Source of the DNA: an uncultured virus (IMG/VR IMGVR_UViG_3300028800_000075)
Lineage: Duplodnaviria; Heunggongvirae; Uroviricota; Caudoviricetes
Reading direction: 5' to 3' (one strand)
DNA: 64,000 nt
Virus record (IMG/VR): IMGVR_UViG_3300028800_000075
Each line of letters starts with the position of its first letter. Within the stretch, counting starts at the first letter, position 1. Both the position numbers and the translations under genes were made by a program. The notes under the pieces are model-generated. The model was given only the letters and a program-made list of their open reading frames with translations, did no database searches and was not told where the DNA came from. Shown here piece by piece: positions 30,938 through 51,500 of the stretch.

Positions 30938-31114
30938 ATGACTAACGTAGAGTGCGACCATCGTTGCAAGCCTTTGGCAAATGATCATCCTGATCGACCT
31001 GGGAAAAAGTTCGAGTGCTGTTTATGCGGTGAATTGTTTGAAGAAGTGTGCAAACCAATTGCTATACAGCCTCAATTCAAGATGCACGTCGGCGCGCCAA
31101 ATAACAAGCCATGA
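30938..31114 (+). CDS. Small Cys-rich ORF (58 aa), not in ORF track
   Basis: MTNVECDHRC...FECCLCGE...; TAAGAT 6 nt upstream; ATGA overlap with GIY-YIG gene. Confidence 0.6.
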   Translation: MTNVECDHRCKPLANDHPDRPGKKFECCLCGELFEEVCKPIAIQPQFKMHVGAPNNKP

Positions 31115-31845
31115 TCGTCTACTTGGTCCGCAATCGCCTGAATGGGAAGGGCTACGTGGGGGTGACGAAGTATACGCTTGAATGGCGATGGAAAGAACAT
31201 TTGAGTGATGCCCGATGTGGCAGTAAGTTGGCGTTTCACTGTGCCATTCGTAAGTGGGGTGTTGACGCCTTTGAATTGTCGATCATTGAAACGTTGAGTG
31301 AGAGTGCATCACTTGTAGATCTTGACGTCGCCGAAAGACGGTGGGTTAAAGATCTCGACACTTTTGGTAAGAACGGTTATAACATGACACCTGGTGGTCG
31401 TGTTGGGGGTGGTTGGGTGAAGGGTTATGTTGTCAAACAATCAACAAGAGAGAAACTTTCCTTAAGTCGTCGTGGTAAGAAGAATTCACTTGAACAGAAT
31501 GTTTTAATTACCACTGGGGTTCGCGCGTATTACGCTACACACGATGGTCCCAACAAGGATAAACCGTGGAGTGATGAGACACGATTGAAAAATATGGTCA
31601 TCAGACACCCACGTAAAAAGCCCGTGTTTGGTTACAATGAAATTGGAGAGTGTGTGATTGCTTACTTGTCGATAGATGATGCTGTCGAAGCGACGGGATT
31701 GAGTTATCGTACATTGACAGGCAATCGAAAGAAGTACAAACTCAAGTACGTGGACGGGATTACTTACCGTCGTAGCAAGTTGACGATCGCTGAACTGAAA
31801 GAAGAAGGTAGACCCCATGGGCTGGCTCGACAATTCGACGAATAA
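31111..31845 (+). mobile_element. Free-standing GIY-YIG homing endonuclease
   Basis: IVYLVRNRLNGKGYVGVT, RWKEH, GYNMTPGG, NUMOD-like C-terminus. Confidence 0.9.
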
Positions 31846-32570: not shown

Positions 32571-33473
32571 GTGTACGTCAAGACGATTGAAGAACTGTTC
32601 ATTGATAAACGCTGGGGTCACCCTAGAGCCCGCCACATTGACGTGTATGCATGTGATGAGTGTGGCGCAGAGCACATGACATCTCACAGGGCAGCGCATG
32701 CTACTAGCGCTGCATTGACGTTCTGTTCGCGTGATTGCAGTAAGCGTTCGAGATCAAGTGGAAAGTTAGCGCAGAAGTGTGTGGATGTTAGGGTTGAGCG
32801 GTACGGCGTTGAATACTCGTCGCAAGTACCCGGTGCGACAGAAAAGATGATTGTGACGAGGGTTGAGAGAACTGGGGCACTTGCGCCGTCAGATCCTACA
32901 TCATCATCGAATGTCAAGTTCAAGCAGACGATGATGGAGAGGCACGGTGCCGATCACCCGTCGAATGCCATTGGCGTCAAGGCGAAGAAGTTAGAGACGT
33001 ACCGCGAGAGGTACGGTGTTGATAGCCCGTTCAGTGCGGGATCACCGTTCAGATTATCAAGTGAAGAATTGAGAGTTGCAGGTCAAAAAGGGTATCGATC
33101 TACAGCGAGACAAGAGAACGGATGGATTGTGTCAAAGCCTGAGCAAGCATTAGTTGAGTTTCTGCGAATGAGGTATGGTAACGTTGAACAACAAGCTCTC
33201 GTTGAACACGGGACACGTAAATGCTGGTTGATTGATGCGTACGTATGCAGCATTGACACATATGTGCAGCTTGATGGTGAGTTCTGGCATGGTCTCGATA
33301 AACCCTACGAAGATCTACACCCGACCAGTAAGAGGGCTTATGATGCCGACCGGGCGCAAGATGAATGGTTCAGAACACATGGACGCAGATTAGTTAGGAT
33401 AACCGACAAGGAACTGATCATGTGCAATAAACTCAACGACTGGTCAACAGTTCTCCAACGATTGGAGGGGTAA
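32571..33473 (+). mobile_element. Free-standing Vsr/DUF559-like (EDxHD-type) homing endonuclease
   Basis: CDECG/FCSRDC, ERYGV repeats, SKPE..IDAY..VQLDGEFWHG..DRAQD..LVRI; own -10 TATGAT. Confidence 0.8.
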
Positions 33474-34796: not shown

Positions 34797-37346
34797 ATGC
34801 CCTCGATCTATCCGTTCGATCCCACTGACCTTGAAACGTTCACCGTCGTCACCAACCCGGTGCGCACGTACACGTCGAGTTCGACGCAGGGCTCCACAGG
34901 TTCGATCTACGTCTATCCGCGTCACTCGTTGATCCAGAAGGACATTCAGCCCGATTCTTCGTTCACCGAGGCGGCCCACGATGATGCCGATCTGTCGTCG
35001 TTGCTGCACCAAGTGCAGATGTCAGCCAAAGTCAGTGCCAATGCCATCACCCACGCCGGTGCCTTGGTCAGTGGCAGCCTCACCAGCCTGCTGACGCAGT
35101 ACATGGCAGGCTGCGCCACACAGGGGCAAGCCGAGCGCCTGAAGGTCAAGCTTGACATCGTCAGGTTTTCTCCTCCTCCCGCGTTCAACAGCAACACCCT
35201 ACGCAAGTTGATCATCAAGGACCAACTCAACACGTTCTATCGACCCACCTACCCGACGGCACACTGGGCCTACACCAACTACAACACCCTCAACTTCTTC
35301 ACCGCGTCGATGGTGCCCACGTCGTCGGTGTTGCTGTACCCGAACATCGGTGGGGGCAACGGAGGCCTCGTCGTCAACAAGGGCCATGCCAGCGGCACCT
35401 ACACGCCGAGTGGCTCCTTCAGCTTTGACTTCTACATCAATCCGCGGTACCAACAGGACGCGCCCAACAAGCCCTTCAAGGCGGGCACCATCCTCCACTT
35501 ATCATCGACCTTTGCCCTATCGCTGGTCACGGGTTCAGGCGTCGACTACACTGGCCGTAGCGTGGGCTTTCGCCTGCAGCTACAGTTGAGCCAGTCGGCT
35601 GACATTGCACCGTCGACGGCGGTGCCGGGCCCGTACCCGTCAGACCTCATCTTCCTGTCCAACGACAATAGCCTGCAGTGGAACCACTGGCACCATGTCG
35701 TCGTCAGGTGGGGCACCAACCAGATCAACAACGGCGTCGGCACTTTCAATGTCGATGGCCTCGACGTCGGCACCTTCACAGTTCCATCATCGACGATTTC
35801 ACCTGCAGCGTCGACGTTCTCACAAACCAGCAGCCTGGCCAACCCTGACGTCATGTGCCTGGGCAACTTCTACGAGGGGCCCAACACCAACGGCAACCCG
35901 ATGGGTGCCTTCTTTGCGTTCGATCCCGCCAACCGCGACGGCCTGCAGGTGATGTACGCCGAATACGGCGTCGCTGCACCTCCGAGTTACTTCTTTAGGC
36001 ACCCGCTCAATGCCGAGCTTCACGACGTCGCCATCCGTCGCTGCTACATGTCAGACACTGACATTGCCTTCAGCGCCAGCATCGGGCCCACCTTCCTTGA
36101 CAACACTTTCTCATTCTATGTGCCGCCCTTCTTCGTCGAGCAATCGCCATATCGCCAGTTTGTGGGTGACCATGGCGGCCTCCTCATCACCCCCTTTGAA
36201 GAGATCGACGGTGCCTCAACGACACCCTTCAGCGTCGCACTGTCGTTCGGCGTCGCGGGTCACTACATCAACCTTGAGAACTTTGGTAAGGACTTGGGTT
36301 CACAGGTCTTTCCGTTGCTACATCACCTGACAGGCGTTGCCATTCAGACGTCGACTAGTGCGGAGACGTGTAATGACTTCCTGTACTCGCAACCCTTCGT
36401 TGCCAAGCGCAACCTGACGATCCTACCTTGCGACGACGGCAATTTCGTTCCCAGCTTTCAATTGCTGGTGTCGGAGGGATTGGCCCGCGCCGTCGATGAC
36501 CTGGGCCTCGATGAGCTCAGCTTCATCAACCTCGACAACATGATCTCGACGGCGACGCTGATGTTCGGCGCGGGGGCCTTCGACGACGGCACGCAGCCCG
36601 ATGTGCAGGTCAATGCCTTTGCCAACATCCAGCTGGGCGCGACGCCTGAGACGCCTTTCACCGCGGCGGGCCCGGCAACGTTGAACTACATCAACACTGC
36701 ACAGTCGGGCAGTGACGTCGAGTTCGGTGCGCCGCTGACGGTCTTTCAACGCACGCAGGATCCGTCGTCGAATGAAGTCGTCGTCTTTGACATCAGCAAC
36801 CTGTACTACGGTTTCAGGATCAGCCCGGGTACGCTGACATTCAGTGAACCCGATCTGATGCGATCGAGCCTGTTGGGCTCGCAGCATGATATTACGCAAC
36901 CCAACACGCGTGGGCCCATCTCGATTAACTTGGCCGATGATGGGCGTGGCAACGTGTACCGGGCAGATTGCTTGACGCCACAGGCAACGTGGAACTCGGT
37001 GGGCAATGTGTATTACGACGAGGGTCTGGTGCTGCTCAAGAGCCCTCACCTGTACTTCTATGGCCTCAATCAATTCGGCACCAACTTCAGGGGTGAGCAG
37101 CACGTGCACGTCATGAAGCTTGATGCCTTTGCGCCGAGCAATCAATTGAACAGCTCGAGCAATCCCAACTACGCGTCGGTGCCTCCGACGGGCTATCCGA
37201 ATGACCCCGAGGACAACTTCGTCTACATCACCAACCTGTACTTCCACGACCGTGACTTAAATGTGGTGATGAAGACGGCACTCGCTCAACCCATCGCGAA
37301 AAGGCCGGGGGATAAAGTCCTCTTTAAGATCAAGTACGACTTCTAA
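34797..37346 (+). CDS. Putative virion protein with a LamG/concanavalin-like domain
   Basis: SFSFDFYINP, WNHWHHVVVRW; C-terminus YITNLYFHD..AQPIAKR..KYDF paralogous to 33478. Confidence 0.75.
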   Translation: MPSIYPFDPTDLETFTVVTNPVRTYTSSSTQGSTGSIYVYPRHSLIQKDIQPDSSFTEAAHDDADLSSLLHQVQMSAKVSANAITHAGALVSGSLTSLLTQYMAGCATQGQAERLKVKLDIVRFSPPPAFNSNTLRKLIIKDQLNTFYRPTYPTAHWAYTNYNTLNFFTASMVPTSSVLLYPNIGGGNGGLVVNKGHASGTYTPSGSFSFDFYINPRYQQDAPNKPFKAGTILHLSSTFALSLVTGSGVDYTGRSVGFRLQLQLSQSADIAPSTAVPGPYPSDLIFLSNDNSLQWNHWHHVVVRWGTNQINNGVGTFNVDGLDVGTFTVPSSTISPAASTFSQTSSLANPDVMCLGNFYEGPNTNGNPMGAFFAFDPANRDGLQVMYAEYGVAAPPSYFFRHPLNAELHDVAIRRCYMSDTDIAFSASIGPTFLDNTFSFYVPPFFVEQSPYRQFVGDHGGLLITPFEEIDGASTTPFSVALSFGVAGHYINLENFGKDLGSQVFPLLHHLTGVAIQTSTSAETCNDFLYSQPFVAKRNLTILPCDDGNFVPSFQLLVSEGLARAVDDLGLDELSFINLDNMISTATLMFGAGAFDDGTQPDVQVNAFANIQLGATPETPFTAAGPATLNYINTAQSGSDVEFGAPLTVFQRTQDPSSNEVVVFDISNLYYGFRISPGTLTFSEPDLMRSSLLGSQHDITQPNTRGPISINLADDGRGNVYRADCLTPQATWNSVGNVYYDEGLVLLKSPHLYFYGLNQFGTNFRGEQHVHVMKLDAFAPSNQLNSSSNPNYASVPPTGYPNDPEDNFVYITNLYFHDRDLNVVMKTALAQPIAKRPGDKVLFKIKYDF

Positions 37347-37363
37347 GTTGTTGATATCATTGA
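37344..37363 (-). promoter_or_regulatory. IHF-consensus site (copy 1 of a 20-bp element)
   Basis: Reverse complement TCAATGATATCAACAACTTA contains WATCAANNNNTTR. Confidence 0.6.
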
Positions 37364-37454
37364 CTTTTAAGTGAGTTGACTACATTCACGTTAATTCGAT
37401 CATGATCTTCATCGACGACCATAGTTAAGATCGACAAGAAAGTTGGTTGATCTC

Positions 37455-37607
37455 ATGAACATTCTCTGGATTCTGTGCTGCATTATCTTCGTGATGTGGC
37501 TATTGGGCTTTGTGTTCTTCCCCATCGCCGGCGGGTTCATTCACCTGCTGTTGCTCGTCATCGTCGTGTTGGTCATCGTCCGCCTGTTGCAAGGCCGCGG
37601 CGTCTAA
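37455..37607 (+). CDS. lmo0937-like small membrane protein (50 aa), not in ORF track
   Basis: MNILWILCCIIFVMWLLGFVFFPIAGGFIHLLLLVIVVLVIVRLLQGRGV: WLLG..GGFIH..RLLQGR signature. Confidence 0.8.
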   Translation: MNILWILCCIIFVMWLLGFVFFPIAGGFIHLLLLVIVVLVIVRLLQGRGV

Positions 37608-37643
37608 CCATCCCCATCGCAGCTCGTCGGACCTATTTACCTC

Positions 37644-37883
37644 ATGCGTATTAGGTTCGGCGAGCTCAAGCGACTGATCGGCGAGGCCAACCGCAACCGG
37701 CGCACGGGCCAGTATTCCTACGAGGCCAACTTCGAGCGCCTCTGCACCTGCGGTCACCCGTTGGCCGTCCACGCCGGCGACGCGCCACACCCGTGTTTCA
37801 ATGATGATACCGGCATTGCAGGTGCGACGGGTGAAGACTGCACCTGTGAAAGGTTCAGGCCCATCCGTGGCAAAAAAGCGTAA
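37644..37883 (+). CDS. Small Cys/His Zn-binding protein with LKRLIGEA leader
   Basis: CTCGH..H..C..CTC; CTATTTA 4 nt before ATG. Confidence 0.75.
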   Translation: MRIRFGELKRLIGEANRNRRTGQYSYEANFERLCTCGHPLAVHAGDAPHPCFNDDTGIAGATGEDCTCERFRPIRGKKA

Positions 37884-38268
37884 GCGTAAGCGTAAGGGCC
37901 ACTACCATACCGGCGTTCACGCGTCTCCCAAGACGGGCCTGACGTGTAAATACCGCTCGGGTTGGGAAAGTTCGTACATGCAGTACCTCGACGCGTCGCC
38001 CGACGTCATCACCTGGGCCTATGAGTCGATCGTCATCCCGTACGTCAGCAACAAGAAGACGGGCAAGCTGCGCAACTATCACCCCGACTTCCTCGTCACC
38101 TACGCCGACGGCCACATCGAACTCGTCGAGGTGAAACCCGCTAGACGGGTGCACCAGGTCAAGGTGGCCAAGAAGTTGTTGGCGGCGGGTGACTGGGCTC
38201 GGGCCCACGGCGTCGCACTGGTCGTCATCACCGAGGTTGAATTGAAGCAACTTGGCCTATTGAAGTAG
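37867..38268 (+). CDS. Head completion nuclease (T4 gp4 / TnsA-N-like)
   Basis: YRSGWE..LD..W.YE.IVIPY..YHPDF..LVEVKP..VITE. Confidence 0.85.
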   Translation: MAKKRKRKRKGHYHTGVHASPKTGLTCKYRSGWESSYMQYLDASPDVITWAYESIVIPYVSNKKTGKLRNYHPDFLVTYADGHIELVEVKPARRVHQVKVAKKLLAAGDWARAHGVALVVITEVELKQLGLLK

Positions 38269-38298
38269 TGAAGTCTCGGGCCATTGGGTGGGATAAGT

Positions 38299-38919
38299 AT
38301 GGGGGTGAGCAATCTCCTACGTGACTATGTCAACTTGCTCGTCGAAGCGCGTCAGCCGTTCGATCTCAAGGTCTTCCGAGGATTGACCGAGGACGACGCT
38401 GTGGAATACCTCGACTTTCACGCCAAGGTGCTGGGGTCGGGCGCGGGCAGGACGGTCTACGACGTGGGCCGTGGGTGGGTCATCAAGTGGGCGTACAACG
38501 CCAATGGCATTGAGCAGAACAGGGACGAGGCCTCTCGACGCAAGTGTGCAGCGCCTAATGCTCCCATCGTCCACGTGTTGGTGAAGGCGCCCAACTACCA
38601 GTGGGTCATCTCCAACAAGGTCAAGCCCGTGGTGGGTGCTTCCCTCGGGCGCGCCCTGAAGGCGACCGTCGGCATGTCTGACACTAGTGACCTAATGTTC
38701 ATCATTGAGACGAGCATTCATCAAGCGGAGGGGTATGAACTCGGGATTGATGACGCCGAAGCTCTTCGTGCCCATGAACGCCTGTATCACACTAATGAGT
38801 GGTACCGGGCACTGTACGACACCGTCAAGGCCTGCAAGATTAATCCCATGGAACTTCATGATGACAACTGGGGTCTCGATGACAAGGGCAGGTTGGTGTT
38901 GCTCGACACGGGAGGGTGA
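38299..38919 (+). CDS. Protein-kinase-like protein
   Basis: LGSGAGRTVY, VIK, QNRDE, ELHDDNWG, LVLLDTG. Confidence 0.75.
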   Translation: MGVSNLLRDYVNLLVEARQPFDLKVFRGLTEDDAVEYLDFHAKVLGSGAGRTVYDVGRGWVIKWAYNANGIEQNRDEASRRKCAAPNAPIVHVLVKAPNYQWVISNKVKPVVGASLGRALKATVGMSDTSDLMFIIETSIHQAEGYELGIDDAEALRAHERLYHTNEWYRALYDTVKACKINPMELHDDNWGLDDKGRLVLLDTGG

Positions 38920-38954
38920 CCTTTACAGGCGTCGCGTGAAGACCATGATCAGCC

Positions 38955-39644
38955 ATGAGCGTGATCTTGGGACTTGATGTAAGCACCAGCTGCACAGGAT
39001 TTTGTGTCATAGAGAGTGGCGCGTCGGCGGGTGACCACTACATGCTCGATCGAATTGAGTTTAAGAAATGTAAGACGCTGTGGGAGAAAACAGATGTGGT
39101 GCAGCGTGCATTCAAAGTCATCAGTGCCGAATTGTCTGCTCAATATCACATCTGCATTGACCGTGTCGTCGTCGAAGAGCCATTGATGGGCTTTCGCGCG
39201 GGAATGTCGTCGGCGCAGACGATCTCGACGCTGATGCGGTTCAATGGCATCACGTCGTACATCGCCCGTGATGTCTTTGGTGTCGATCCCGAGTACATCG
39301 GTGCCGCCCACGCCCGCAAATTATGTGGCGTCAAGCTCCAGAAGACGGCGATCGGCGGGCCCCAAAAGGAGCAAGTTTTCTCGTACATGAGTGAGCACGA
39401 CCTCCATGACGTCAAGTGGCCCGTGACCAAGACTGGCAAGCAGGTACTCTGGAGCCGCGACGCGACCGACGCCTACGTCATCGCTCGAGCAGCGGCAATC
39501 TGTGGGCCCATCGTGGTGACCAAGAAGCCCAAGAAGGTGCCAAAACCCCCGGGCGGGTGTGCCTACCCGTGCGAGCCTGGGTGTCCGGGCAAGCCCATGA
39601 AGGGCCTGACGATGTGCCGCAAGCACCAACCCTTCCCGGCTTGA
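38955..39644 (+). CDS. ruvC: RuvC-like Holliday junction resolvase
   Basis: ILGLDVSTSCTG, VVVEE, DATDAYVIA. Confidence 0.85.
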   Translation: MSVILGLDVSTSCTGFCVIESGASAGDHYMLDRIEFKKCKTLWEKTDVVQRAFKVISAELSAQYHICIDRVVVEEPLMGFRAGMSSAQTISTLMRFNGITSYIARDVFGVDPEYIGAAHARKLCGVKLQKTAIGGPQKEQVFSYMSEHDLHDVKWPVTKTGKQVLWSRDATDAYVIARAAAICGPIVVTKKPKKVPKPPGGCAYPCEPGCPGKPMKGLTMCRKHQPFPA

Positions 39645-39676
39645 ACCATTGACCTGATCTGGGTTACGATCGGCTC

Positions 39677-40663
39677 GTGCCCGTCGTCTCCGTGACCGAT
39701 CGCGTCAAGTTCATCGAAAGCGTCTTCGGTCTCGGGCGCCTGGCACGCAATGGCCGCAATTTCGACGTGCGCTGCCCGGTCTGTGCACCCAAGGACGTGT
39801 CGAAGAAGAAGCTGGCCATCCTATTAGAGGATGATCAGTGGCACTGTTGGACGTGCGGCGCGCGCGGTCACAGCCTGTGGTCGTTGGTCAGGAAGTACGG
39901 TACCCGTGACCAATTGCTCGAGTATCGCGATCGGTTCATGCCTGCCGACAAGCGGGATCACCGGTGCCTTGACATTGTCATCGTCGATGAGCCCTCAGGC
40001 GTAGAACTTCCTGATGACTTCAGGTTGCTGGCGACGTCGACGTCCCGAGACACCGATGTGCTGGCGCTGCGCAGGTACTTGACCCAACGCGGCATCACCC
40101 AACGTGACATGTGGTACTTCAAGTTGGGCTACAGCTCAGACTTCAGGTGGAAGCGCCGCGTCTTAGTGCCATCATTCGATGCGCGCGGTGCCCTCAACTA
40201 CTTCGTGGGCCGCGCCGTCGACAAGTTTCGCAAGCCCAAGTATGACGGCCCCGATGTGCCGCCTGGGTACAAGCTCCAGATCATCTTCAATGAGCTCAAC
40301 ATCGACTGGTCACAGGAGCTGGTGCTGTGCGAGGGCCCGTTCGACCTGATGAAGTGCCCTGACAACGCAGTGCCCTTATTGGGCAGTGACCTCAATGAGA
40401 CCAGCGCGCTGTTCAATGCCATCATCGTCAACAAGACGCCCGTCGCCTTGGCCCTCGACGCCGACATGCGGGTGAAGAAGACGCCGAAGTTGGCCCGCAA
40501 GCTGGCGGAGTTCGACGTGCCGGTGAGGATCGTCACGGTGCCGACCGACCCGGGTGACATGGCCAAGCGTGACTTCAGGCAGGCGTTGGTGACAGCGCGG
40601 CCCTTTAGTTGGGACGATGCTTTCATGGATCGGTTAGACGTAGCGGCACAGATCAGGTTGTGA
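39677..40663 (+). CDS. dnaG: DNA primase (Zn finger + TOPRIM)
   Basis: CPVC..WHCWTC; YFVGR; CEGPFD; ALDAD; DPG. Confidence 0.9.
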   Translation: MPVVSVTDRVKFIESVFGLGRLARNGRNFDVRCPVCAPKDVSKKKLAILLEDDQWHCWTCGARGHSLWSLVRKYGTRDQLLEYRDRFMPADKRDHRCLDIVIVDEPSGVELPDDFRLLATSTSRDTDVLALRRYLTQRGITQRDMWYFKLGYSSDFRWKRRVLVPSFDARGALNYFVGRAVDKFRKPKYDGPDVPPGYKLQIIFNELNIDWSQELVLCEGPFDLMKCPDNAVPLLGSDLNETSALFNAIIVNKTPVALALDADMRVKKTPKLARKLAEFDVPVRIVTVPTDPGDMAKRDFRQALVTARPFSWDDAFMDRLDVAAQIRL

Positions 40664-40733
40664 GGGTGCCCGCCGCCAACATCCATTGTACAGATCCTTT
40701 GCGGTGCTGTACTGATCTATAGAGAGTGCCTGC

Positions 40734-41381
40734 ATGCTAAGGATTGCCCACACGGCTGATGTCCACGTCCGTAATTTAAGTCGCCACGCAGAGTATAAGC
40801 AGATCTTTACTACCTTCATCGAGCGGTGTAGGGAACAGAAGGTCGATCACATCTTCATTGGGGGCGATAGTTTTCACACTAAGACTTCTGGTATGTCGCC
40901 TGAGTGCATTGAGTTCATGTGCTGGTGGTTCAGTGCGTTGGCTGAAGTTGCTCCCGTCCACGTGATGCTCGGTAACCACGACCTCAACTGCAGCAACCGT
41001 TCGCGCCAAGACGCCATCTCTCCCATCATTGCCGCACTCAACAATCCACGCGTGCACCTCTACAAGCACAGTGGCACCTACGAGTTTGCCCCTGGTTATG
41101 TGTGGGGTGTCTTTAGCCTGTTTGACGAGGAGAATTGGGACAAGGTCAAGCCCATACCGGGTAAGGTCAACATCGCCTGTTACCACGGCCCGATCTGGGG
41201 AGCGACGACCGACACCAACTGGTTGATTGAGGAAGGCACCACGGTTGAATTCTTCAAGGGTTGGGACTTTGCAATGTTGGGGGACATCCACACTCACCAA
41301 TTCTTAGCAGGCCGCGACGTGGAGCTGGAGATCGATGCCGCCGACATTGGCAACTACCCGGAAGCCGAGGTGATCGGGTGA
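40734..41381 (+). CDS. sbcD: SbcD/Mre11 (gp47-like) nuclease, N-terminal fragment
   Basis: HTADVH, GGDSFH, GNHD, CYHG, LGDIH; ends before the YPGS segment. Confidence 0.88.
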   Translation: MLRIAHTADVHVRNLSRHAEYKQIFTTFIERCREQKVDHIFIGGDSFHTKTSGMSPECIEFMCWWFSALAEVAPVHVMLGNHDLNCSNRSRQDAISPIIAALNNPRVHLYKHSGTYEFAPGYVWGVFSLFDEENWDKVKPIPGKVNIACYHGPIWGATTDTNWLIEEGTTVEFFKGWDFAMLGDIHTHQFLAGRDVELEIDAADIGNYPEAEVIG

Positions 41382-43999
41382 GCGCCGGTAAGATCAAGAT
41401 CCGCGTCAAGCGACCGTGGGTGGGTTACCCATCTTCTCCTGTGCAGCAGAACTATGGAGAATCGCTGACACATGGTTACTTGCTGTGGGACATCGCCGAC
41501 AAGTCTAACTTTGACGTCAAGTTCTGTGAGTTGCCCAATCCGCAACCCTACGTGACGCTAGAATGGACTGGGTCGATCGGTGCCCTGGTCAACAGGGCCA
41601 AGAAAATCTGTGCGTCAGGCGGCCGCTTCAGGATCAGGAGCAAGGACGTGCTGGCACAGAAGGAGGTGACGCTGCTGACGCAGGCCCTGCAGGAGGAGCT
41701 CAAGGCGTCGGAGGTGACCTTCAAGAATGACCATCAGGTCAATCGCGATGTGCTGCAGGCCGGTGCCGCCATACTGGCCAAGGAAGACCTCCGTAACCCC
41801 GATGTGTTGTTGAAATTGGTGAAGGACTATCACCCCGACGGCGTCACCGACGATGAGTGGTCGGCCGTCCGTGAGCAGATCGGCAGCTACTTGACCCGTG
41901 CTCTCGACAGTGATGACGTCGTCCGTAATACCAAGTGGTCACTGCGACACCTGGCCTTCGACAACATGTTTGCGTACGGTGCAGGCAATGTCATCAACTT
42001 TGACAAGTTGCCGGGCATCGTCGGCATCTTTGGTCCCAATCGCGCTGGCAAGTCGTCGATCGTCGGCACCGTCATGTACTCGTTGTTCAACACCACCGAC
42101 CGGGGCAACGTCAAGAACCTCCATGTCGTCAACGTCAGGCACGACCACTGCTACACTAAGGCCATCATCGACGTCAATGGTACGGGCTACGTCATCGAGC
42201 GCCAGACCGTCAAGCACGAGAACAAGCACGGCGCTGTCAATGCCAACACCAACCTCAACGTCTTCAGGATCAATGATACGGGTGAGGCCGTTGACCTGGC
42301 GGGTGAAGAGCGGAAGGACACCGAGAAGGTGATTCGCAAGTTGATCGGCACCGGTGACGATTGCCTGCTGACCAGCGTGGCATCGCAGGATGAGATCAAG
42401 CAGTACATCAACCATGGGTCGACGAAGCGGCGGCAGATCCTGTCGCGGTTCTTAGATCTCGACATCTTCGACAGGATGTTCAGGTTGGCCACCGATGACG
42501 TCAATGTCAACAAAGCGGCGCTCCGCCAATTGCCCGAACGCGACTGGCAGGAACAACAACGCTCGTTGAACGAGAGGCTCGATGCTGCTCGTACAACCAT
42601 CGATGAGAAGGATCACCTGCTCCACGACGCCAGCCAGCAACTCGATGAACTGCGCCAACAGTTGGCCTCGTTCAAGGACTTCATTCCCGTGACACAGACG
42701 CAGGTTGAATCACAACGTAATCACGTTGATTCACTGACGACCAAGGCCCGGGCCACGACTCAAAAGATCGATGAATTGCACGCTGACATTGGGCTGATGC
42801 TGAAGAAAGTGACGTCGATCGATGCAGTGCTAGTTGACTATGACCTAGGCGCATTGAAGCAGCGCCAAGAGGCCTATCGCGTCCTAGAATCATCATTCGA
42901 GGTGCTCCGTCACGCACACGAGAAGGATGCTGACCTGTTGAAGCAACAGCAGCGGTCGCTGAAAATACTTGACGACGTGCCGTGCGGTGATGACTATCCG
43001 ACGTGTCGCTTCATCAAGGATGCCCACAAGAACAAGGAACGCGTAGAGCCACAGCGTGACAAGGTAGAACGCTCTCTCGACAAGTTGCAGAAGGCGGAGC
43101 TGGCGTTGCAAGCGCTGCAACAAGAGGACCTTCACAATAAGGTCACCAAAGTTGAACAACTGATCAGCGCACAGGCCAAGCTCCGCGTTGACATTGCTGC
43201 AAAGCAGGTTCAACTTGTCAAGTTGGAGGGTGCGCTAGATGACATCAATGGCACACTGGAGCCCACCGCACGCCGGTTAGCGGAACTCGAAGAAGCGTTG
43301 AAGAATGAAGGAAATGTGGAGGTCGTGACGCTGCGTCGCCAGATCGATGAGCTCCAGAAGGCAGCGCGCAGGCACGATTCTGAAAAGTTGACAGCGGCAT
43401 CAGAGGTGGGTCGCATGCAGTCTGACCTCGATAAGTTGGCAATTGATGCGACCCACCGCCACAACCTGTTGCAGTTGATGAAGGCTCACGAACTGATTGC
43501 ACAGGCCTTCTCGAGGAAGGGCATCCCGGCGTTGATCACCACGTCACAGCTCCCCGTCATCAACGCCGAGATTGCCGAGATTCTTCACGGCATCGTTGAC
43601 TTCAACATTGAGCTTGAGGTCGACGACGTCAATGATTCCATGGAGGTCTACATTGACTACGGCGACAGTCGCCGGCCCATCGAGCTGGCTAGCGGCATGG
43701 AGAAGATGATCGCCTCGTTGGCCATCCGCGTGGCGCTGATCAACGTATCATCGTTGCCCAAGACCGACATGTTCATCATCGATGAGGCCTTTGGCCCCAT
43801 GGATCCCGCTAGCGTTGAGGCCTGTAACCGCCTGTTGATGTCACTCAAGCGCTACTTCAAGACCATCGTCGTCATCACCCACGTCGACGGTGTCAAGGAC
43901 GCGGCCGATCACATCATTGAGATCAACAAGGTCGAAAAAGATAGCTGCGTGATGTACAATGAATCGTGGCATGGCGACCGTACCTCCGAGACAGACTGA
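41378..43999 (+). CDS. sbcC: SbcD C-terminal fragment fused to SbcC/Rad50 (gp46-like) ATPase
   Basis: GTG start overlapping TGA with GAGG RBS; GYPSSPVQQNYGE..GYLLWD then GPNRAGKS, PCGDDYPTC, ASGMEK, IIDEAFG. Confidence 0.9.
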   Translation: MSAGKIKIRVKRPWVGYPSSPVQQNYGESLTHGYLLWDIADKSNFDVKFCELPNPQPYVTLEWTGSIGALVNRAKKICASGGRFRIRSKDVLAQKEVTLLTQALQEELKASEVTFKNDHQVNRDVLQAGAAILAKEDLRNPDVLLKLVKDYHPDGVTDDEWSAVREQIGSYLTRALDSDDVVRNTKWSLRHLAFDNMFAYGAGNVINFDKLPGIVGIFGPNRAGKSSIVGTVMYSLFNTTDRGNVKNLHVVNVRHDHCYTKAIIDVNGTGYVIERQTVKHENKHGAVNANTNLNVFRINDTGEAVDLAGEERKDTEKVIRKLIGTGDDCLLTSVASQDEIKQYINHGSTKRRQILSRFLDLDIFDRMFRLATDDVNVNKAALRQLPERDWQEQQRSLNERLDAARTTIDEKDHLLHDASQQLDELRQQLASFKDFIPVTQTQVESQRNHVDSLTTKARATTQKIDELHADIGLMLKKVTSIDAVLVDYDLGALKQRQEAYRVLESSFEVLRHAHEKDADLLKQQQRSLKILDDVPCGDDYPTCRFIKDAHKNKERVEPQRDKVERSLDKLQKAELALQALQQEDLHNKVTKVEQLISAQAKLRVDIAAKQVQLVKLEGALDDINGTLEPTARRLAELEEALKNEGNVEVVTLRRQIDELQKAARRHDSEKLTAASEVGRMQSDLDKLAIDATHRHNLLQLMKAHELIAQAFSRKGIPALITTSQLPVINAEIAEILHGIVDFNIELEVDDVNDSMEVYIDYGDSRRPIELASGMEKMIASLAIRVALINVSSLPKTDMFIIDEAFGPMDPASVEACNRLLMSLKRYFKTIVVITHVDGVKDAADHIIEINKVEKDSCVMYNESWHGDRTSETD

Positions 44000-44268
44000 T
44001 CGACGATCGACCCGGTGACTTTGTCGTCATCGTGCCGGTCGATGCCTCACCCGTGACGCCGCTGGCGTGTCCGATCTGTGATCACCTGATGCGGTCGCAG
44101 GATGATGATCGTGCGTACCGTGAATTTGGGTGCTGTGAGCGCTGTGCCATGATGTGGGCTCATCCACGTCGACAGGCCTGGCGTGACGGTTGGCGACCAT
44201 CAGCAGAACAGGTGCAAGGGGTTGAAGTTGATCGCCCACCGCTATCACTTGTCCTTGAACTGCGTTAG
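43966..44268 (+). CDS. Zn-binding hypothetical protein
   Basis: CPIC..CCERC..W..GWRP. Confidence 0.75.
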   Translation: MAWRPYLRDRLIDDRPGDFVVIVPVDASPVTPLACPICDHLMRSQDDDRAYREFGCCERCAMMWAHPRRQAWRDGWRPSAEQVQGVEVDRPPLSLVLELR

Positions 44269-44283
44269 TCCTGTGCAACGGCC

Positions 44284-44290
44284 ATATTTA
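44284..44290 (+). promoter_or_regulatory. Putative late promoter motif ATATTTA (terminase operon)
   Basis: Intergenic, upstream of GAGGAG RBS. Confidence 0.6.
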
Positions 44291-44310
44291 GGCCGAGGAG
44301 CAACCTTCTC

Positions 44311-44691
44311 ATGGCAGACATTGATTACGCAGCTCTTCAACAGTCGTTCGACACGACGTGGGGCCGTTCATCGACACCCAAGACGGCAGGATACTCTGTC
44401 AAGGTGACGCTGTTGGGACCTGATCGGCTGATGACATCGTACGCCGCTATCGTCAATTTTGGTACCGAGAGGGAATCACTTGAGATGAAACGGCGCTATG
44501 CCGAGGAATCAAAGGCGGTGACCAGCGAGGTCTTGAAGGTGGTCAAGGCCAATTACAAGGAATTGGCCGATGCGTCACTGTCGACCAAAGAGTTGTCGAG
44601 CGAAGACAGCCTTGAGATCACCAACTACAACGTTCATAACCCCCGCCGAAGTGCCTATTACAGGCGCAAGACGGTGTACGAGATCGGGTGA
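44311..44691 (+). CDS. Hypothetical protein upstream of terminase
   Basis: GAGGAG RBS; coupled to terminase. Confidence 0.8.
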   Translation: MADIDYAALQQSFDTTWGRSSTPKTAGYSVKVTLLGPDRLMTSYAAIVNFGTERESLEMKRRYAEESKAVTSEVLKVVKANYKELADASLSTKELSSEDSLEITNYNVHNPRRSAYYRRKTVYEIG

Positions 44692-47531
44692 TGAGTGAAC
44701 CTCATCTAGGCCTGTCGAAGCCTCAACAGGTGCAAGAGATCCTGAAGTGTGGTAAGGATCCCATCTACTTCATCAAGACCTACGTCAAAATTCAGCACCC
44801 GAAGAGGGGGACGATCCCGTTTGAGACCTACCCGTTTCAGGACGACTGCATCAATGACTTCAAAGAACACCGCCTCAACATCGTCCTGAAGTCACGGCAG
44901 TTGGGACTATCGACGATCAGCGCGGCATACTCGCTGTGGCTGGCGATCTTTCACAAGGACAAGAATGTCCTCGTCATTGCGACCAAGCTACCCACGGCCA
45001 TGAACTTCATCAAGAAGATCAGGGTCATGTTGCAGAGCCTGCCCCCATGGCTGTTGCTACCCAAGTTTGAGCCCACCAAGCAGGCCATCGCCTTCAGCAA
45101 TGGCTCGACGATCACCGCCATTCCGACGTCCGACGATGCCGGGCGATCGGAGGCCTTGTCACTGCTGATCGTTGATGAGGCTGCCTTCATCCGTGACTTT
45201 GAGGAGATCTGGACAGGACTGGCACCCACCTTCTCGACGGGAGGTAGTGCCATCATCTTGTCGACGCCCAATGGTGTCGGTGGCCAGTACTACCGCCTGT
45301 GGGTCGAGGCCGAGGCGGGCCTCAATGACTTCAATCCCATTAGGCTGATGTGGGATGTGCACCCGGAACACGATCAGGCGTGGTTTGTGAAGGAGAGCAG
45401 ATCGCTGTCGAGGCGTAAGGTCGCTCAGGAGTTCTTGTGCGTGGGCGGTGATACCAAGATTGTGACGCCTGATGGGTACAAGATGGCAGAAGAGTTGCAC
45501 ATCGGCGACTTGGTCATGACGCACGTTGGTAGGTTTCGTCCTGTCACCCGGGTAAATAGTAGGCTTGTAAAAGACGGCGAGGAACTGTATGAGGTCAGTT
45601 CACCAGGTAGTCGTCAGTGTAAGTTCGTCTTGACTGGCAATCATCCCATGTTGTCATACCGTTTTCGTGCCAATCAGATCACGTCACTTCAATGGATTGA
45701 ACAGAATGCGTGTGAGCCATCGTGGATTGAGGCTACGACAATTGCCGGTACTCGTAAGACCACGGATCGAATTCTCAACGCGCTAGTACCAGTGTTTAGG
45801 CCTGATGAACCCACTGAACGCTTGACGTCGATTGATTTGTCGACGCTTTACCCATCAGTCGATGTAACGCCTGACACGTGCCGCTATGTGAAGCAATGGG
45901 GTAGTACTAAACGTCATGTGCCTGTTGACTTTGACTTAGGCATGTTTGTAGGATTGTACTTGGCTGAGGGGTGTAATGCACGGGGTGGGCTTGACATGGG
46001 GTTTCACATTGATGAGATGGAGACACACGCTCGTTGGTGCGTTGATTTTCTCGAGAAGTTGGGTTGTCGAACGACGTTGTCTCCATCAGAGATTGCAAAT
46101 GGTTGTCGTCTGTGGACACACAATAAACATGTTGGTGCGCTTGTCAGATCGTTTGTCATGGGTCAAACGGCTCCTATTAAACATCTTGATCTTGATAGGG
46201 TTCTATCATGTGGCCGTGAGTTTATCAAAGGTCTATTGTATGGGCATCACGCGGGAGATGGTAATCACGAGCACACTACGAAGACATCCACGTTCAGTAC
46301 TTCGTCGAAGTTGGTGTATCAATTACGTACCCTCAACACCATGTTTGGTCTGTATCCTCGGATCGGGCGTGTTGAACGTAGTAAAAAGAACCCAAAGCAC
46401 CATGATATGTGGTATCTCGAGTTTCAGGCAGGTGGGACGACGTACCGTGAATTGCTCGAACGCGGACAATTGTACAAGCCCGGATCAAGGACGCGTCTCA
46501 TTGGTGAGTACTTTGTTGGTCAGCACTCATTGAAGGATATATCGCACCTTCGTGATGTCGATGGGGGTTACACCGTCTATGATATCAGTGTGGCCGATGA
46601 CAATTCATTTGTTGCTCAATCTGCAGTTCTTCACAATTGCGACTTCATCACGTCGGGTGACACCTTCCTACAACCCGGTGACCTCGATGACCTAAAGTTG
46701 CAGATCATGCAACCTGCGTCGAAGGAGGGCTTTGATCGCAACATCTGGGTCTGGAGCCCACCCATTGCTGGTCACACCTACGTCATCAGCGCCGACGTGT
46801 CGAGGGGCGATGCACGTGATTATTCGGCCTTTCACATCATCGATGCGGGTGACTGCGAAGTGGCCGCCGAGTACATGGGCAAGGTGCCGCCCGAGAAACT
46901 GGCCGACATGTTGAACGAGTGGGGCCGCAAGTACAACGATGCCCTATTGGTGCCCGAGAACAACACCTTTGGCTACTTCGTCAACGTCAAACTCCGCGAT
47001 GCGCTGGGCTACAAGAAGCTGTACTACACCAGCAACGGCGGCGACCCCTTCAATTACGTGCCCACCAACTCTGAGGAGCTGCCGGGTTTCCCGACTAACC
47101 AGAAGTCACGGGTGCAGATCCTGGCCAAGCTGGAGGAGATGATTCGCAACAAGACGTTGAAGACGTACTCACAGCGCCTCTATGATCAATTGCAGGCCTT
47201 CGTGTGGAACGGCAACAAGCCCATGGCCGGCAAGGACAGCTTCGATGACTTGATCATGAGCCTCGCCATTGGTTGTTGGTTGGTCGAGGGCAGCAATGGC
47301 CTCAGTGAACAGGCCGTCGCCATGTCGTACGCTATCCTCAATGCGACCCGCGTCCACGTTCGGGACATCAATCAGATGCCCGGCGGCGTCAACGAGGCAC
47401 AGCCTTTGGTCAATCCCAACATCAAGGGCATGAATGCACAGAGTGTCTATCGACCACGCGACGCGTCGCAGGTGGCACCACGTAATCCGTACCAAAGAGA
47501 CGTCAGTGACTTTCGCTGGTTGACTAGATGA
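44688..47531 (+). CDS. Terminase large subunit (T4 gp17-like) with intein
   Basis: KCGKDPIYF, KSRQLG, LIVDEAAF, STPNG, ADVSRG, DDLIMSLAI. Confidence 0.95.
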   Translation: MMSEPHLGLSKPQQVQEILKCGKDPIYFIKTYVKIQHPKRGTIPFETYPFQDDCINDFKEHRLNIVLKSRQLGLSTISAAYSLWLAIFHKDKNVLVIATKLPTAMNFIKKIRVMLQSLPPWLLLPKFEPTKQAIAFSNGSTITAIPTSDDAGRSEALSLLIVDEAAFIRDFEEIWTGLAPTFSTGGSAIILSTPNGVGGQYYRLWVEAEAGLNDFNPIRLMWDVHPEHDQAWFVKESRSLSRRKVAQEFLCVGGDTKIVTPDGYKMAEELHIGDLVMTHVGRFRPVTRVNSRLVKDGEELYEVSSPGSRQCKFVLTGNHPMLSYRFRANQITSLQWIEQNACEPSWIEATTIAGTRKTTDRILNALVPVFRPDEPTERLTSIDLSTLYPSVDVTPDTCRYVKQWGSTKRHVPVDFDLGMFVGLYLAEGCNARGGLDMGFHIDEMETHARWCVDFLEKLGCRTTLSPSEIANGCRLWTHNKHVGALVRSFVMGQTAPIKHLDLDRVLSCGREFIKGLLYGHHAGDGNHEHTTKTSTFSTSSKLVYQLRTLNTMFGLYPRIGRVERSKKNPKHHDMWYLEFQAGGTTYRELLERGQLYKPGSRTRLIGEYFVGQHSLKDISHLRDVDGGYTVYDISVADDNSFVAQSAVLHNCDFITSGDTFLQPGDLDDLKLQIMQPASKEGFDRNIWVWSPPIAGHTYVISADVSRGDARDYSAFHIIDAGDCEVAAEYMGKVPPEKLADMLNEWGRKYNDALLVPENNTFGYFVNVKLRDALGYKKLYYTSNGGDPFNYVPTNSEELPGFPTNQKSRVQILAKLEEMIRNKTLKTYSQRLYDQLQAFVWNGNKPMAGKDSFDDLIMSLAIGCWLVEGSNGLSEQAVAMSYAILNATRVHVRDINQMPGGVNEAQPLVNPNIKGMNAQSVYRPRDASQVAPRNPYQRDVSDFRWLTR
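45438..46637 (+). mobile_element. Intein (400 aa) with LAGLIDADG endonuclease in terminase
   Basis: QEFL|CVGGDT...TGNHP...GLYLAEG...GHHAGDG...VYDISV..VLHN|CDF. Confidence 0.93.
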
Positions 47532-48565: not shown

Positions 48566-51500
48566 ATGGCGAAACGCGAACCTAGAAGCCTCTTTAGAAG
48601 GTTAAGTCGACTTTTCAAGAGTGGCCCAGTCGTGAAGAGGAAGATACGTGCCCTCGACACGAGCATTGCTGTCGCCGATAAGACGAAGAGCTCGGGTACC
48701 CTGCTCTTTCAGAAGTCGTTGTCTCCCACGTATGCGACGATCACGAGCAACGCATACAATCTCTCGGAACGATTAATGAGGTATCAAGATTTTCAAGAGA
48801 TGGAATATAGTGTTGACGGTGCGACCTTGATTGCCCAACCTGATGGGTTCAAGACAATCGCCGAGTTGGCTGCGGAGTGTGAAGCAGATCCCAACAAGAC
48901 GTTCATCGTTTACTCTTATGACCATGAGCAGAAGCGCATTGTACCTGCATGGGGTAAGCAGGCGCGCCAAACGTGTGTTGACCATGCGTGGAAGGTGACG
49001 TTCGATAACGGCAAGTCGCTGACGTTGAGCCCCGAACACCGCTTGATGTTGCGCGATGGTACGTATCGCAAGACTGAGGACTTACAGCCTGGCGATGCGA
49101 TGATGCCATTCTACCGCAAGGATCTGTTTGCGAACGCAGAAGAGGGCACTAAGGGGTACTCGTGGGTCTACACGATGGATGGACGTTTTCGCGGGTGGAC
49201 GAAGGAACACCAGCTGGTATCTGAGTGGGTGGCCGGACGAGAGTTGACTGAGGATGAGTGCGTTCACCACATCAACTTCGTCAAGACCGACAACAGGCCT
49301 GAGAACTTGCGTATCATGACGAAGAGCGACCACAGCTCGTACCATGCAGCGCTCAACAATGGGGTGAAGTGGGCGCCAGAGAATCAAGAATGGATCGAAA
49401 GGTTCAAAAAACAGCACGCAGAGTGGATGCGTAACAATGCACCATCGCGCCGCAACGATGTCACGTTCTCTAGAATCATTCAGATCGCTGAGAAGGTTGG
49501 CTTCGACATCACCAAAGTGTCCAGGGCCCTTAATGTCACTACGTTCTTGGTTCATGAGCGGCTCACTGCCAATGGGTTTCCTACGTTCGAAGCGTTTACA
49601 GCGGCATATGGTCACGGTATACCTGAGGTTGTCATTCATCAGGCCTCAAAGCTAACGCGTGAACTGTCGCTTGACACGATCAAACACTTGATTGTTGAGG
49701 CAGACACCAAACGTTCGATGGCGGTGAAGTTAGGTTGTACCGTCAATGTCCTCGATAAGTTCCTCAATCGGCGCATTAATCGAACGTGGAATGATGTGAG
49801 GAAGGAATGTGGGTTGACTACCTACAAACAAATTCGTCAAGGAGGTCGTCCCAAGGGTTCAAACGGCAGCGATCTCACGTTCAAACAGATCTGTGATGCT
49901 TTCGAACCAGGCCTCACCTTGCCACGTCTGACTGAAAAGCTAGGTGTCAACAAGAATACGATTATCTCTCGCCTTGCGCAGAACGGCTTCAAGAAGTTTA
50001 GTGAGTTCGGCGCATCTTACCAGAACTGCAAGGTCGTTTCTGTCGAGTACGTCGGCATCATTCCCCTCTATGACCTCACAGTCGATGGTTACAAGAACTT
50101 TGCAACCGACAGCGTCATCTCACACAACACCCCTGAGATCGCTGCCGCGATGGACATCTATGCCGATGAGACCGTCGCCGCAGATGAGAAGGGCATGTGC
50201 CTCCACGTCTACTCCGACAATGAGAAGATCAAGGAGCTGCTCGAGGACCTCTTCTACAACGTCCTCAACATTGAATTCAACTTGCGCTCGTGGGCTCGTA
50301 ACCTCTGCAAGTACGGCGACTTCTTCCTCTACAATGACGTGTCGCCCGAGTACGGCGTCGTCAACGCTTTCCCGATCCCGGTCAACGAGGTCGAGCGCGA
50401 AGAGAACTATGACCGTGAAGATCCCTTCGCCGTCCGTTATCGTTGGGTGACGTTGGGCAACAGGACGCTCGAAAATTGGGAGGTGACCCACTTCCGCTTG
50501 TTGGGCAATGACATGTTCCTCCCATATGGCTCGTCGATCATTGAGCCCGCGCGCCGCATCTGGCGCCAGCTCATCCTGATCGAGGACGCCATGTTGGTCT
50601 ACCGCGTCGTGCGTGCCCCCGAGCGCCGCGTTTTCTACATTGACGTGGCCAACGTGCCCGCGACTGAAGTCAACAATTACATCGAACAGCAACGTCAACA
50701 GATGAGGACGACGCCGGTCGTTGACAACCAAACTGGCCGCGTCGACCTACGCTATAATCCGATGTCCGTTGAGGAGGACTTTTTCATCCCGGTGCGTGGT
50801 GGCGAGAGCGGCACTAAGATCGACACGTTGGCGGGTGGTGTCAACACTGCCGCAGTTGAGGACGTCGCCTACATTCAGAAGAAGCTGTTCGCTGCACTGA
50901 AGATCCCGCGGGCCTACTTGGGCTACGATGAGATGTTGAGCAGCAAGGCGACGCTGGCACAGGAGGACATTCGGTTCTCCCGCACCATCTCCGTCATTCA
51001 GAAGACGATGATGGCCGAGCTCAATAAGTTGGCCATCATTCACCTGTACGCTCATGGCTTTGACAATGAGGACCTGCAGAACTTCACCCTACGCCTCAGC
51101 AATCCGTCGACCGTCGCTCAACAGCAGAAGTTGGAGCTGTGGCGCGCCAAGTTTGAAATTGCGGGTTCGGCCCCCGAGGGTATGGCCAGCAAGAAGTTCA
51201 TTCGCAAGGAGATCTGGGGATTGAACGACGAGCAGATGGAGGCCATCGACGAGGAACGGTTGGCTGAAAAGAAGATCGATGATGCCATCGAGGCAGGTGA
51301 GGGTGCTGACGACGGTGGAGGCGGGGGTGCAGGTGGAGGCGGGGGTGACGATGACCTCTTTGGAGACGCCGGCGCTGGTGGTGGCGATGAAGGTGGCGGC
51401 GCCGAAGAAGCAGGTGGTGGCGAAGAGAAGGCTCCACCTGAAGAGAATGCGGGTGAAGAACCCGAAGAAGAGGTTGAGCCCGGCGCTCAATTGTTGACCA

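Follow-up and report, generated by a model that had tools for sequence, protein, structure and literature searches.

A single-chain Mre11-Rad50 gene in two pieces in an uncultured phage, with charged tails at a site where relatives carry an endonuclease gene

In the 64,000-nucleotide (nt) stretch of phage DNA analysed here (IMG/VR record IMGVR_UViG_3300028800_000075, hereafter the window) a nuclease of the Mre11/SbcD type is encoded by two adjacent colinear open reading frames (ORFs), although its homologues are continuous. The first, ORF-N, carries the N-terminal piece of the nuclease and the second, ORF-C, carries its remainder followed by a Rad50/SbcC ATPase. The split is real and maintained, and it occurs at the same point in relatives, in which an endonuclease gene stands between the pieces, has decayed there or is absent. 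The locus is quite probably an endonuclease-derived gene in pieces with charge-complementary tails, and the window would be its endonuclease-free, compacted end state.

According to this explanation a free-standing homing endonuclease cassette would have fractured a single-chain Mre11-Rad50 (SbcDC-like) gene at the turn of a beta hairpin after nuclease motif V. The cassette would have brought the codons of an acidic tail and a stop, the endonuclease gene, and a start codon with the codons of a basic head. In the lineage of the window the endonuclease gene would later have been wholly deleted and the pieces compacted to a GTGA overlap, with the Shine-Dalgarno (SD) motif inside the tail codons. 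ORF-N would give all the conserved metal-ligand motifs (I-V), and from ORF-C would come the final strands of the core together with the capping region and the tethered Rad50 ATPase. Tail and head would make up an extended antiparallel ribbon whose hydrophobic faces meet and whose acidic face lies against the basic one, adding to the core interface.

The break and its conservation among relatives

The original prediction for this locus had described a nuclease ORF that stops soon past GDIH and a continuation that opens the next ORF and runs into SbcC, with a GTGA stop/start overlap accompanied by GAGG, and the coordinates and motifs confirm all of this (Table 1). ORF-N ends in ...GDIHTHQFL followed by AGRDVELEIDAADIGNYPEAEVIG, its TGA stop (41379-41381) lying 27 residues past GDIH. 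Read from the GTG at 41378, in frame -1 relative to ORF-N, ORF-C starts with V/M-SAGKIKIRVKRPWVGYPSSPVQQNYGE, includes GYLLW in its N-terminal part and continues as Rad50 from about residue 186. Both the tail of ORF-N and the head of ORF-C have alternating hydrophobic residues. The span given earlier, 41261-41520, does cover the junction, but it begins at a TTG (41261) inside ORF-N that is the first ORF-C start in the ORF listing and only a nominal one, the real junction being at 41378-41381.

The Mre11/SbcD motif residues are all found on ORF-N alone, with D9, H11, G44, D45, G80, N81, H82, D83, H151, G183, D184 and H186 invariant in 83 alignment rows; a complete phosphoesterase sandwich with its capping domain is reached only by both pieces together. 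ORF-N matches Metallophos (PF00149, 2e-11), phrog_100 (2.9e-18) and SbcD/Mre11 chains of the PDB, the best of them being 7dog_A (2.1e-11). ORF-C matches AAA_23 (7.9e-11, above the cut-off) and phrog_77 (1.9e-52), with SMC_N and SbcC_Walker_B scores under their cut-offs, and it contains the GPNRAGKSS, SGMEK, MFIIDEAFG and ITHVD motifs of a Rad50/SbcC ABC ATPase. The canonical Rad50 zinc hook has CxxC spacing. This is not found at the coiled-coil apex of ORF-C, which has C-x6-C instead (CGDDYPTC), both cysteines (C744 and C751 in the alignment) being invariant in 61 rows. A profile of the N-terminal part of ORF-C alone gave no match to PDB sequences at E<=1, and blastn of 40734-43999 against the phage collection gave no match.

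A single-base frame change at the G-rich GGGTGAG would be a common type of error, and a sequencing or assembly frameshift in a continuous gene has to be considered for that reason. The original prediction had argued against it, and rightly. One IMG/VR record from another metagenome (L005) is 100% identical to the window over 10,645 nt (35734-46378) and a second, also from another metagenome (L004), is 99.92% identical over 35734-44490; both are identical to it at the junction. Logan contigs of the runs X10, X11 and X12 span 41378-41381 with 0 differences and 0 gaps, whereas run X13 has no contig over 41336-41390 and so leaves a hole at the junction; this evidence consists of contigs and not raw reads, and all the runs are 'rhizosphere metagenome' runs of 2019 which may belong to one campaign. 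In a more distant relative (L006) ORF-N is 69% identical in amino acids (aa) and is interrupted at the same residue; here the overlap is ATGA, and an indel of 3 nt shortly downstream keeps both frames. The split is also kept in 19 further distinct junction types. Because the other assemblies are identical at the junction and L006 keeps the split, it is not an error, and we attach practically no weight to that alternative.

It could also be supposed that the fracture inactivated the nuclease and that both pieces are drifting as a decaying pseudogene, since two of the differences between L004 and the window turn codons of ORF-C (at 41939 and 42647) into stops. However, the seven differences of L004 (37404, 37433, 39236, 41869, 41940, 42647 and 42984) are every one G>T or C>A, a pattern that points to oxidative damage or to an artefact of assembly and not to a real pseudogene. 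Moreover, both pieces stay open with all their catalytic motifs over about 30-40% divergence, and no second copy was found in the 141,862-nt record nearest the window, a record that is only 38% complete. A pseudogene is very improbable.

The continuous form is the norm of this family. In Microcystis phage Mel-JY01 one coding sequence of 1066 aa spans both window ORFs, with the primase upstream as in the window, and LR756501 has one ORF of 1202 aa covering Mre11-Rad50. A HMMER scan with ORF-N returned 2772 proteins at E<=1e-3, and most of the best 150 are about 1000-1100 aa long; single Mre11/SbcD-Rad50/SbcC chains of about 1050 aa are encoded, for example, in L001 (2359-5559), L003 (1431-5039) and L007-L022. 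An IMG/VR scan with P0142 found no relative. The original prediction had presented the fusion of the C-terminal half to Rad50 as a feature of the split. ORF-C does carry Rad50, but because the whole family is single-chain this fusion is the ancestral family state and is not special to the split. Our literature searches on fused Mre11/Rad50/SbcCD found no description of natural phage fusions, and the present data document many phages that encode Mre11 and Rad50 as one chain.

The region around motif V was classified in 170 sources (169 loci and the window), 7 of which lack the motif region. In 134 unsplit sources (133 called by script, and L135, which the script mis-called, counted by eye) the link from GDIH..Q to the YPGS strand is a beta hairpin of 11-22 residues. 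In 29 sources the gene is split, always at the same point; the loci were fetched with split queries, so 29/170 is not a prevalence, and the window, L004 and L005 represent one phage. Counted as distinct tail/head/spacer rows there are 21 junctions. All 29 split sources have a homologous tail and head and none of the 134 unsplit loci has them; split point and charge pattern are conserved among the split sources. The tail consensus is R-[DE]-V-E-[IL]-x-[IV]-[DE]-x-x-[DE]-L-x-x-Y-P-G-... and that of the head K-K-I-K-I-[KR]-[VT]-K-[KR]-P-W. The net charge of the tail ranges from -3 to -11 and that of the head from +4 to +9, except in L002 (+1) and in L101, whose start was mis-picked. ORF-C is open for at least 843 aa past the YPGS motif, the exceptions being the contig-truncated L031 and L077, and L004. 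Spacers of 924, 908, 137, 76, 24, 12, 6, 0, -1, -4 and -8 nt occur, in frame relations 0, +1 and -1, and the -4 overlap is found in 13 of the 29. Most compact junctions of the relatives have GAGG or GGAG 8-15 nt 5' of the start.

In a second set of 160 rows, made from a representative search and the first loci, the link is short in 144; 9 others are split and 3 fragmentary, and the remaining 4 (P0008, P0009, P0020 and P0135) are unsplit with tail and head as one continuous insertion of about 45 aa. These four are scattered over three or more separate parts of the tree, and they may be re-fusions after loss of the endonuclease or ancestors of the split forms; tail and head are consequently not a tag strictly confined to split genes. 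Two N pieces, P0145 (191 aa) and P0062 (177 aa), end a few residues past GDIH without a tail and may be contig-end fragments or cases of another interruption (an intron or other insertion) at the same hot spot.

One full-length chain might still be made by recoding, through a -1 frameshift, stop read-through or ribosome hopping as in T4 gene 60. The -1 frame and 4-nt overlap of ORF-C would suit this, as would the in-frame stop directly before the head codons in L087 and L095, and in T4 the bypass element travels with the endonuclease gene mobA (10.1101/2022.08.31.505936). Against this, the 29 split sources show three frame relations, spacers of -8 to 924 nt and whole genes between the pieces, with no conserved signal, and a common recoding mechanism is excluded because frames and spacers vary in this way. 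In addition, no X XXY YYZ heptamer is seen by eye at ATC GGG TGA, and the head is conserved in having a start codon (ATG, GTG or TTG) and an SD-like motif. We hold recoding to be highly unlikely. A bypass with GGG as take-off and landing site was also rejected, the downstream GGG at 41418-20 and 41422-24 resuming, by eye, in the wrong frames.

The absence of intein motifs claimed in the original prediction holds, as neither ORF matches a Hint or intein family of Pfam at E<=0.01. Split inteins are recognised by blocks with Cys or Ser at position 1, TxxH, and a terminal HN followed by Cys, Ser or Thr. A split intein was rejected here: in addition to the Pfam result the tail starts A-G-R, no HN[CST] precedes WVGYPSS, and 24 and 12 residues are too short.

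Endonuclease genes at the break and the origin of the tails

In two distant lineages an endonuclease gene lies exactly at the break. In L002 an ORF of 305 aa stands between the pieces, with Zn-ribbon repeats and a TnsA-like PD-(D/E)XK domain (PF08722, 5.8e-6, above the cut-off). In L029 and L032 the intervening ORF has 300 aa, Zn-ribbon repeats like those of L002 and an ECDGDYWH motif of Vsr/DUF559 type, with weak Vsr/DUF559 Pfam scores under the cut-off, and the C piece starts within its 3' end. The intervening genes of all three sources belong to the PD-(D/E)XK homing endonuclease type. Remnants of the endonuclease gene are found in L030, L031 and L028: the first keeps about 40 nt from the beginning and about 130 nt from the end of an L029-type gene, and L028 only the last 60 nt or so. 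This series from a full endonuclease gene to short spacers follows the course expected of a free-standing endonuclease gene, namely invasion, decay, and loss that leaves the host gene split.

Among L028, L029 and L030 about 100 nt of motif V and tail are 92-96% identical and the first 60 nt of the C piece 93-98%, whereas identity falls to 72-77% in the N cores and to 64-73% in the C parts. With the unsplit neighbours L052 and L055, in turn, the N cores of L028 and L030 share 86-87% identity. Judged by these sequence comparisons the cassette of tail, endonuclease and head moves laterally, because alleles with 64-77% identity in the flanks share it at 92-98%; homing with short co-conversion tracts gives rise to such mosaics. 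A DNA tree built from 40 rows of the N domain requires 6 changes for its 6 split rows, and every one of them is forced by starred branches (L026/L054, 98; L030/L055, 97; L028/L052, 97). The protein trees require 12 changes for 13 insertion-bearing rows (160 rows) and 13 changes, at least 4 of them forced, for 25 split rows (83 rows).

Several observations weigh against an endonuclease origin. The two endonucleases at the site have different nuclease domains, TnsA-like in one case and Vsr-like in the other. The 4-nt overlap at the window junction (41378-41381) holds no endonuclease gene or remnant, so that an endonuclease origin of the window lineage would rest on the homology of its tail and head with those of endonuclease-bearing alleles. 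The tail flavours (KYPG..., ...GWK..., ...YGxS.IEIIEE) roughly track deep clades, which would suit old cassettes and an old vertical descent with losses equally well. By eye, the tails of the distant L002, P0108, P0127 and P0135, set against their core identity, are likewise compatible with transfer and with descent. The clade of the window (14 rows, 13 of them split, with the unsplit L007 nested at 99) is without an endonuclease gene and gives no mosaic signal, its tail and head being less conserved than the core (mean pairwise identity 55% and 56%, against 71%, with 43% for residues 61-185 of the C piece). In this clade the split appears to be old and vertically inherited. Finally, the insertion could predate the split, since four unsplit proteins carry the same insertion in one piece.

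From these observations a different history could be written, in which the insertion of about 45 aa is an old elaboration of the hairpin after motif V, the window lineage was cut by ordinary mutation (a frameshift followed by selection of a start codon) and endonucleases elsewhere merely favour the same loop. The four unsplit insertion-bearing proteins, the clean junction of the window, the flavours that follow deep clades and the lack of a mosaic signal in the window clade would all agree with it. However, among the 170 sources the long insertion occurs in 0 unsplit loci and in all 29 split ones, the endonuclease gene is placed exactly at the site in both lineages, the decay series leads from it to short spacers, and tail and head travel with it between diverged alleles. 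Moreover, the layouts of the junctions (-8 to +24 nt, in all three frames) resemble varied deletion end points. We therefore regard a history without an endonuclease as unlikely and retain the origin from a homing endonuclease cassette. Compared with known fractured genes, the endonuclease gene between the pieces is missing from the window and present in L002, L029 and L032, and tails at the break site are absent from continuous homologues with the exception of the four unsplit representatives with the insertion.

A bolder proposal, which is put forward tentatively and towards which we lean slightly less than away, is that tail and head are cargo of the cassette and foreign to the host gene. 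They would act as a transferable 'splint' that makes the invasion of an essential Mre11-Rad50 gene harmless, moves with the endonuclease between alleles 25-35% different in DNA, outlives it as a permanent gene fission and can be re-fused as a beta-ribbon insertion of about 45 aa. If this were true, mobile endonucleases would give rise to stable gene fissions as well as to new insertions in proteins, and tail and head together would be a naturally optimised, possibly portable, complementation module.

Assembly of the two pieces

The two polypeptides would be translated separately. Translation of ORF-C is probably coupled to the termination of ORF-N, judging from the overlap and from the SD-like motifs in most compact junctions, and the pieces would then reassemble non-covalently. 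A complex of ORF-N with residues 1-185 of ORF-C, predicted in three runs from their own alignments (83 and 76 rows), reached an ipSAE of 0.90 in the three runs against 0.01 for the best control; this mark is reached by 116 of 157 solved complexes and by 2 of 215 mismatched pairs. The runs agree in at least 92% of contacts and the partner pLDDT is at least 73. The model supports binding but does not show it, and its high score may reflect likeness to solved Mre11 structures, because the pieces are halves of a fold with solved relatives.

The predicted interface is formed by residues 178-203, 205, 208 and 210-215 of ORF-N and 2-22 of ORF-C, and the tail (192-203, 205, 208, 210-215) and head (2-13) lie within its confident part. 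The contacts of lowest error, however, are those of core strands (ORF-N 3-7 with ORF-C 34-39, expected error 0.3 A), which speaks against the tails as the chief means of assembly.

The pairing of tail and head also agrees with the model of an unsplit protein that has the insertion. The AF2 model of P0020 (mean pLDDT 88.7, helices at 555-944) resembles SbcD nuclease and capping domains (7dog_A, TMt 0.68; 7yzp_A, 0.67), and Rad50/SbcC chains are also among its top Foldseek matches. Its insertion is modelled as a strand (193-204), a helix (206-211) and two further strands (217-221 and 224-236) with pLDDT 79-83, and the window break maps to the turn before the last of these. By homology with this model the tail of ORF-N would be the outward half of a long beta ribbon followed by a short helix and a short strand. 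The head would be the return strand of the ribbon, opposite the outward strand RDVELEID.

The models thus agree with the tail-head strand pairing in the electrostatic beta-zipper that had been proposed for reassembly, whereas the main interface is predicted to be the reassembled phosphoesterase core. The further suggestion of a portable heterodimerisation tag remains speculation, because the core strands hold the lowest-error contacts and because the heterodimers of a comparable enzyme form without tails: in the fragmented ribonucleotide reductase (RNR) of Aeromonas phage Aeh1 the tails are needed for dimerisation of heterodimers and not for heterodimer formation (Crona et al. 2011; PMC3045599).

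Genome context and comparison with known systems

Table 1. Features of the split Mre11-Rad50 locus and two neighbouring ORFs (positions in the window)
Feature	Position	Strand	Basis or detail
TnsA-like PD-(D/E)XK endonuclease ORF, free-standing	37801..38268	+	PF08722 1.5e-13
DnaG-like primase, directly 5' of ORF-N	39677..40663	+	
ORF-N, N-terminal piece of Mre11/SbcD nuclease, 215 aa	40734..41381	+	PF00149, phrog_100, PDB chains, motifs
ORF-N motif I	40755-40766	+	
ORF-N motif II	40860-40868	+	
ORF-N motif III	40971-40982	+	
ORF-N motif IV	41181-41189	+	
ORF-N motif V	41280-41297	+	GDIHTH
Acidic tail of ORF-N, residues 192-215	41307..41378	+	net charge -6; homology with P0020 model, split relatives
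GAGG, Shine-Dalgarno-like motif within tail codons	41367..41370	+	last base 7 nt 5' of GTG 41378
GTGA overlap, ORF-C start and ORF-N stop	41378..41381	+	
ORF-C, 873 aa	41378..43999	+	basic head, remaining Mre11 fold and capping region, linker, Rad50/SbcC ATPase with coiled coil
Basic head of ORF-C, residues 2-13	41381..41416	+	SAGKIKIRVKRP, net charge +5
Mre11 C-terminal part, ORF-C residues 14-185	41417..41932	+	WVGYPSS strand, QQNYGE, GYLLW strand (41474-41488), capping region, linker
Rad50/SbcC module	41933..43996	+	P-loop 42032-42058; C-x6-C hook 42983-43006; SGMEK 43691-43705
Rad50/SbcC module, further motifs		+	Walker B 43769-43795; H-loop 43874-43888

The window is phage DNA and encodes a helicase, PhoH, a portal protein, proteases, a major head protein and a terminase; the nearest record, a linear viral contig of 141,862 nt rated 38% complete, suggests a jumbo phage. 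The gene order primase, Mre11-N, [endonuclease], Mre11-C/Rad50, small Zn protein, 126-aa ORF and terminase is the same in Mel-JY01 and in L028-L034, whose flanks were read. The free-standing TnsA-like ORF is homologous to the nuclease domain of the endonuclease within the split of L002 (33% identity, E 5e-13).

Three more free-standing endonuclease-like ORFs (20483-21229, 31111-31845 and 32571-33473) have PHROG homing endonuclease or GIY-YIG matches. The large terminase subunit (44688-47531, 947 aa) has a Hint_2 match at residues 251-295 that is under the cut-off, with a CVGGDT... start and, later, ...VLHNC; this insertion is probably an intein. In an ORF of 1147 aa (48566-52009) the portal match is limited to residues 653-913 and HNH-endonuclease matches occur at 188-480, so that the portal gene may contain an HNH-bearing intein or be fused to an endonuclease. 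An ORF of 649 aa (57991-59940) matches the major head protein only at residues 374-632, its N-terminal 370 residues or so being without a match. With the terminase Hint insertion, the HNH-like region of the portal ORF, the three endonuclease-like ORFs and the TnsA-like ORF, the window is rich in mobile elements. Its GC content is 45-51% between about 12 and 27 kb and 54-62% elsewhere.

The fracture of an SbcD-like gene is already in print, in a report that was the only one found by our literature search on SbcD fracture with a homing endonuclease; a search on homing endonucleases and phage genes in pieces gave nothing relevant. In a locus of the Lake Gatun metagenome, Dassa et al. (2009; PMC2677866) described the N and C halves of an SbcD-like protein as adjacent ORFs with no split intein. 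The halves have 25 extra C-terminal and 9 extra N-terminal residues, which lie between consecutive conserved motifs and are absent from other SbcD-like proteins, and a Vsr-like endonuclease ORF between them overlaps the downstream start. In their model the stop and start codons come from the invading element, and the endonuclease gene can later be lost (step III). By its description this locus is like L029 and L032, with the Vsr-like ORF between the halves and the overlap with the downstream start, and it differs from the window, where the pieces have a 4-nt overlap in place of an endonuclease gene. It is a single locus, and the available part of that paper mentions no Rad50 continuation, charge pattern, decay remnants, lateral transfer of tails or re-fused forms.

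The closest functional precedent is the nrdA gene of phage Aeh1, fragmented by the free-standing mobE, in which the NrdA-a piece and the NrdA-b piece are translated independently and the oppositely charged tails resulting from the insertion of mobE are essential for activity (PMC3045599). The same authors predicted such tails in other fragmented genes and considered that they may be a general way to neutralise fragmentation, theirs being one tested case. The window resembles the NrdA-a/mobE/NrdA-b arrangement in that an essential enzyme gene is fragmented and the tails at the break are oppositely charged; in Aeh1, however, the polarity is reversed, with a basic C-terminal and an acidic N-terminal tail, and the endonuclease is of HNH type and still present. 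The gp39/mobA/gp60 system of T4 is likewise an endonuclease-associated split DNA enzyme with tail-like extensions of similar charge distribution (PMC3045599), and its extra sequence travels with the endonuclease gene as in the split Mre11-Rad50 (10.1101/2022.08.31.505936). T4 gene 60 adds a translational bypass of 50 nt, whereas in the split Mre11-Rad50 neither a bypass nor a conserved recoding signal was seen.

Split inteins in fractured genes have the same layout of host N part, endonuclease gene and host C part, and electrostatic pairing of their halves has been proposed (PMC2677866). They differ in that the tail and head described here are of about 24 and 12 residues and are retained in the mature protein in unsplit forms, and no ligation is expected. 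With the SbcCD of E. coli (6s6v, 7yzp, 7yzo) the phosphoesterase motifs I-V, the capping domain, the ABC ATPase with coiled coil and the Cys hook are shared. T4 gp46/gp47 is a two-gene Mre11-Rad50 system. The boundary between nuclease and ATPase genes of such two-gene systems is absent in this phage family, the boundary in the window lies inside the nuclease domain, and the hook is C-x6-C.

What is new here, in comparison with these systems, is the compact end state free of an endonuclease and its persistence, the decay series, the mosaic evidence for tails carried by a cassette, the unsplit forms with the insertion, and a host gene that is a single-chain Mre11-Rad50. The family offers about 21 natural junctions of one enzyme, with the endonuclease gene intact, internally deleted, reduced to a short remnant or replaced by a compact overlap, together with unsplit controls with and without the insertion. 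The idea of charged tails developed for the Aeh1 RNR becomes testable in the well-understood Mre11-Rad50, with material on how gene fission turns permanent.

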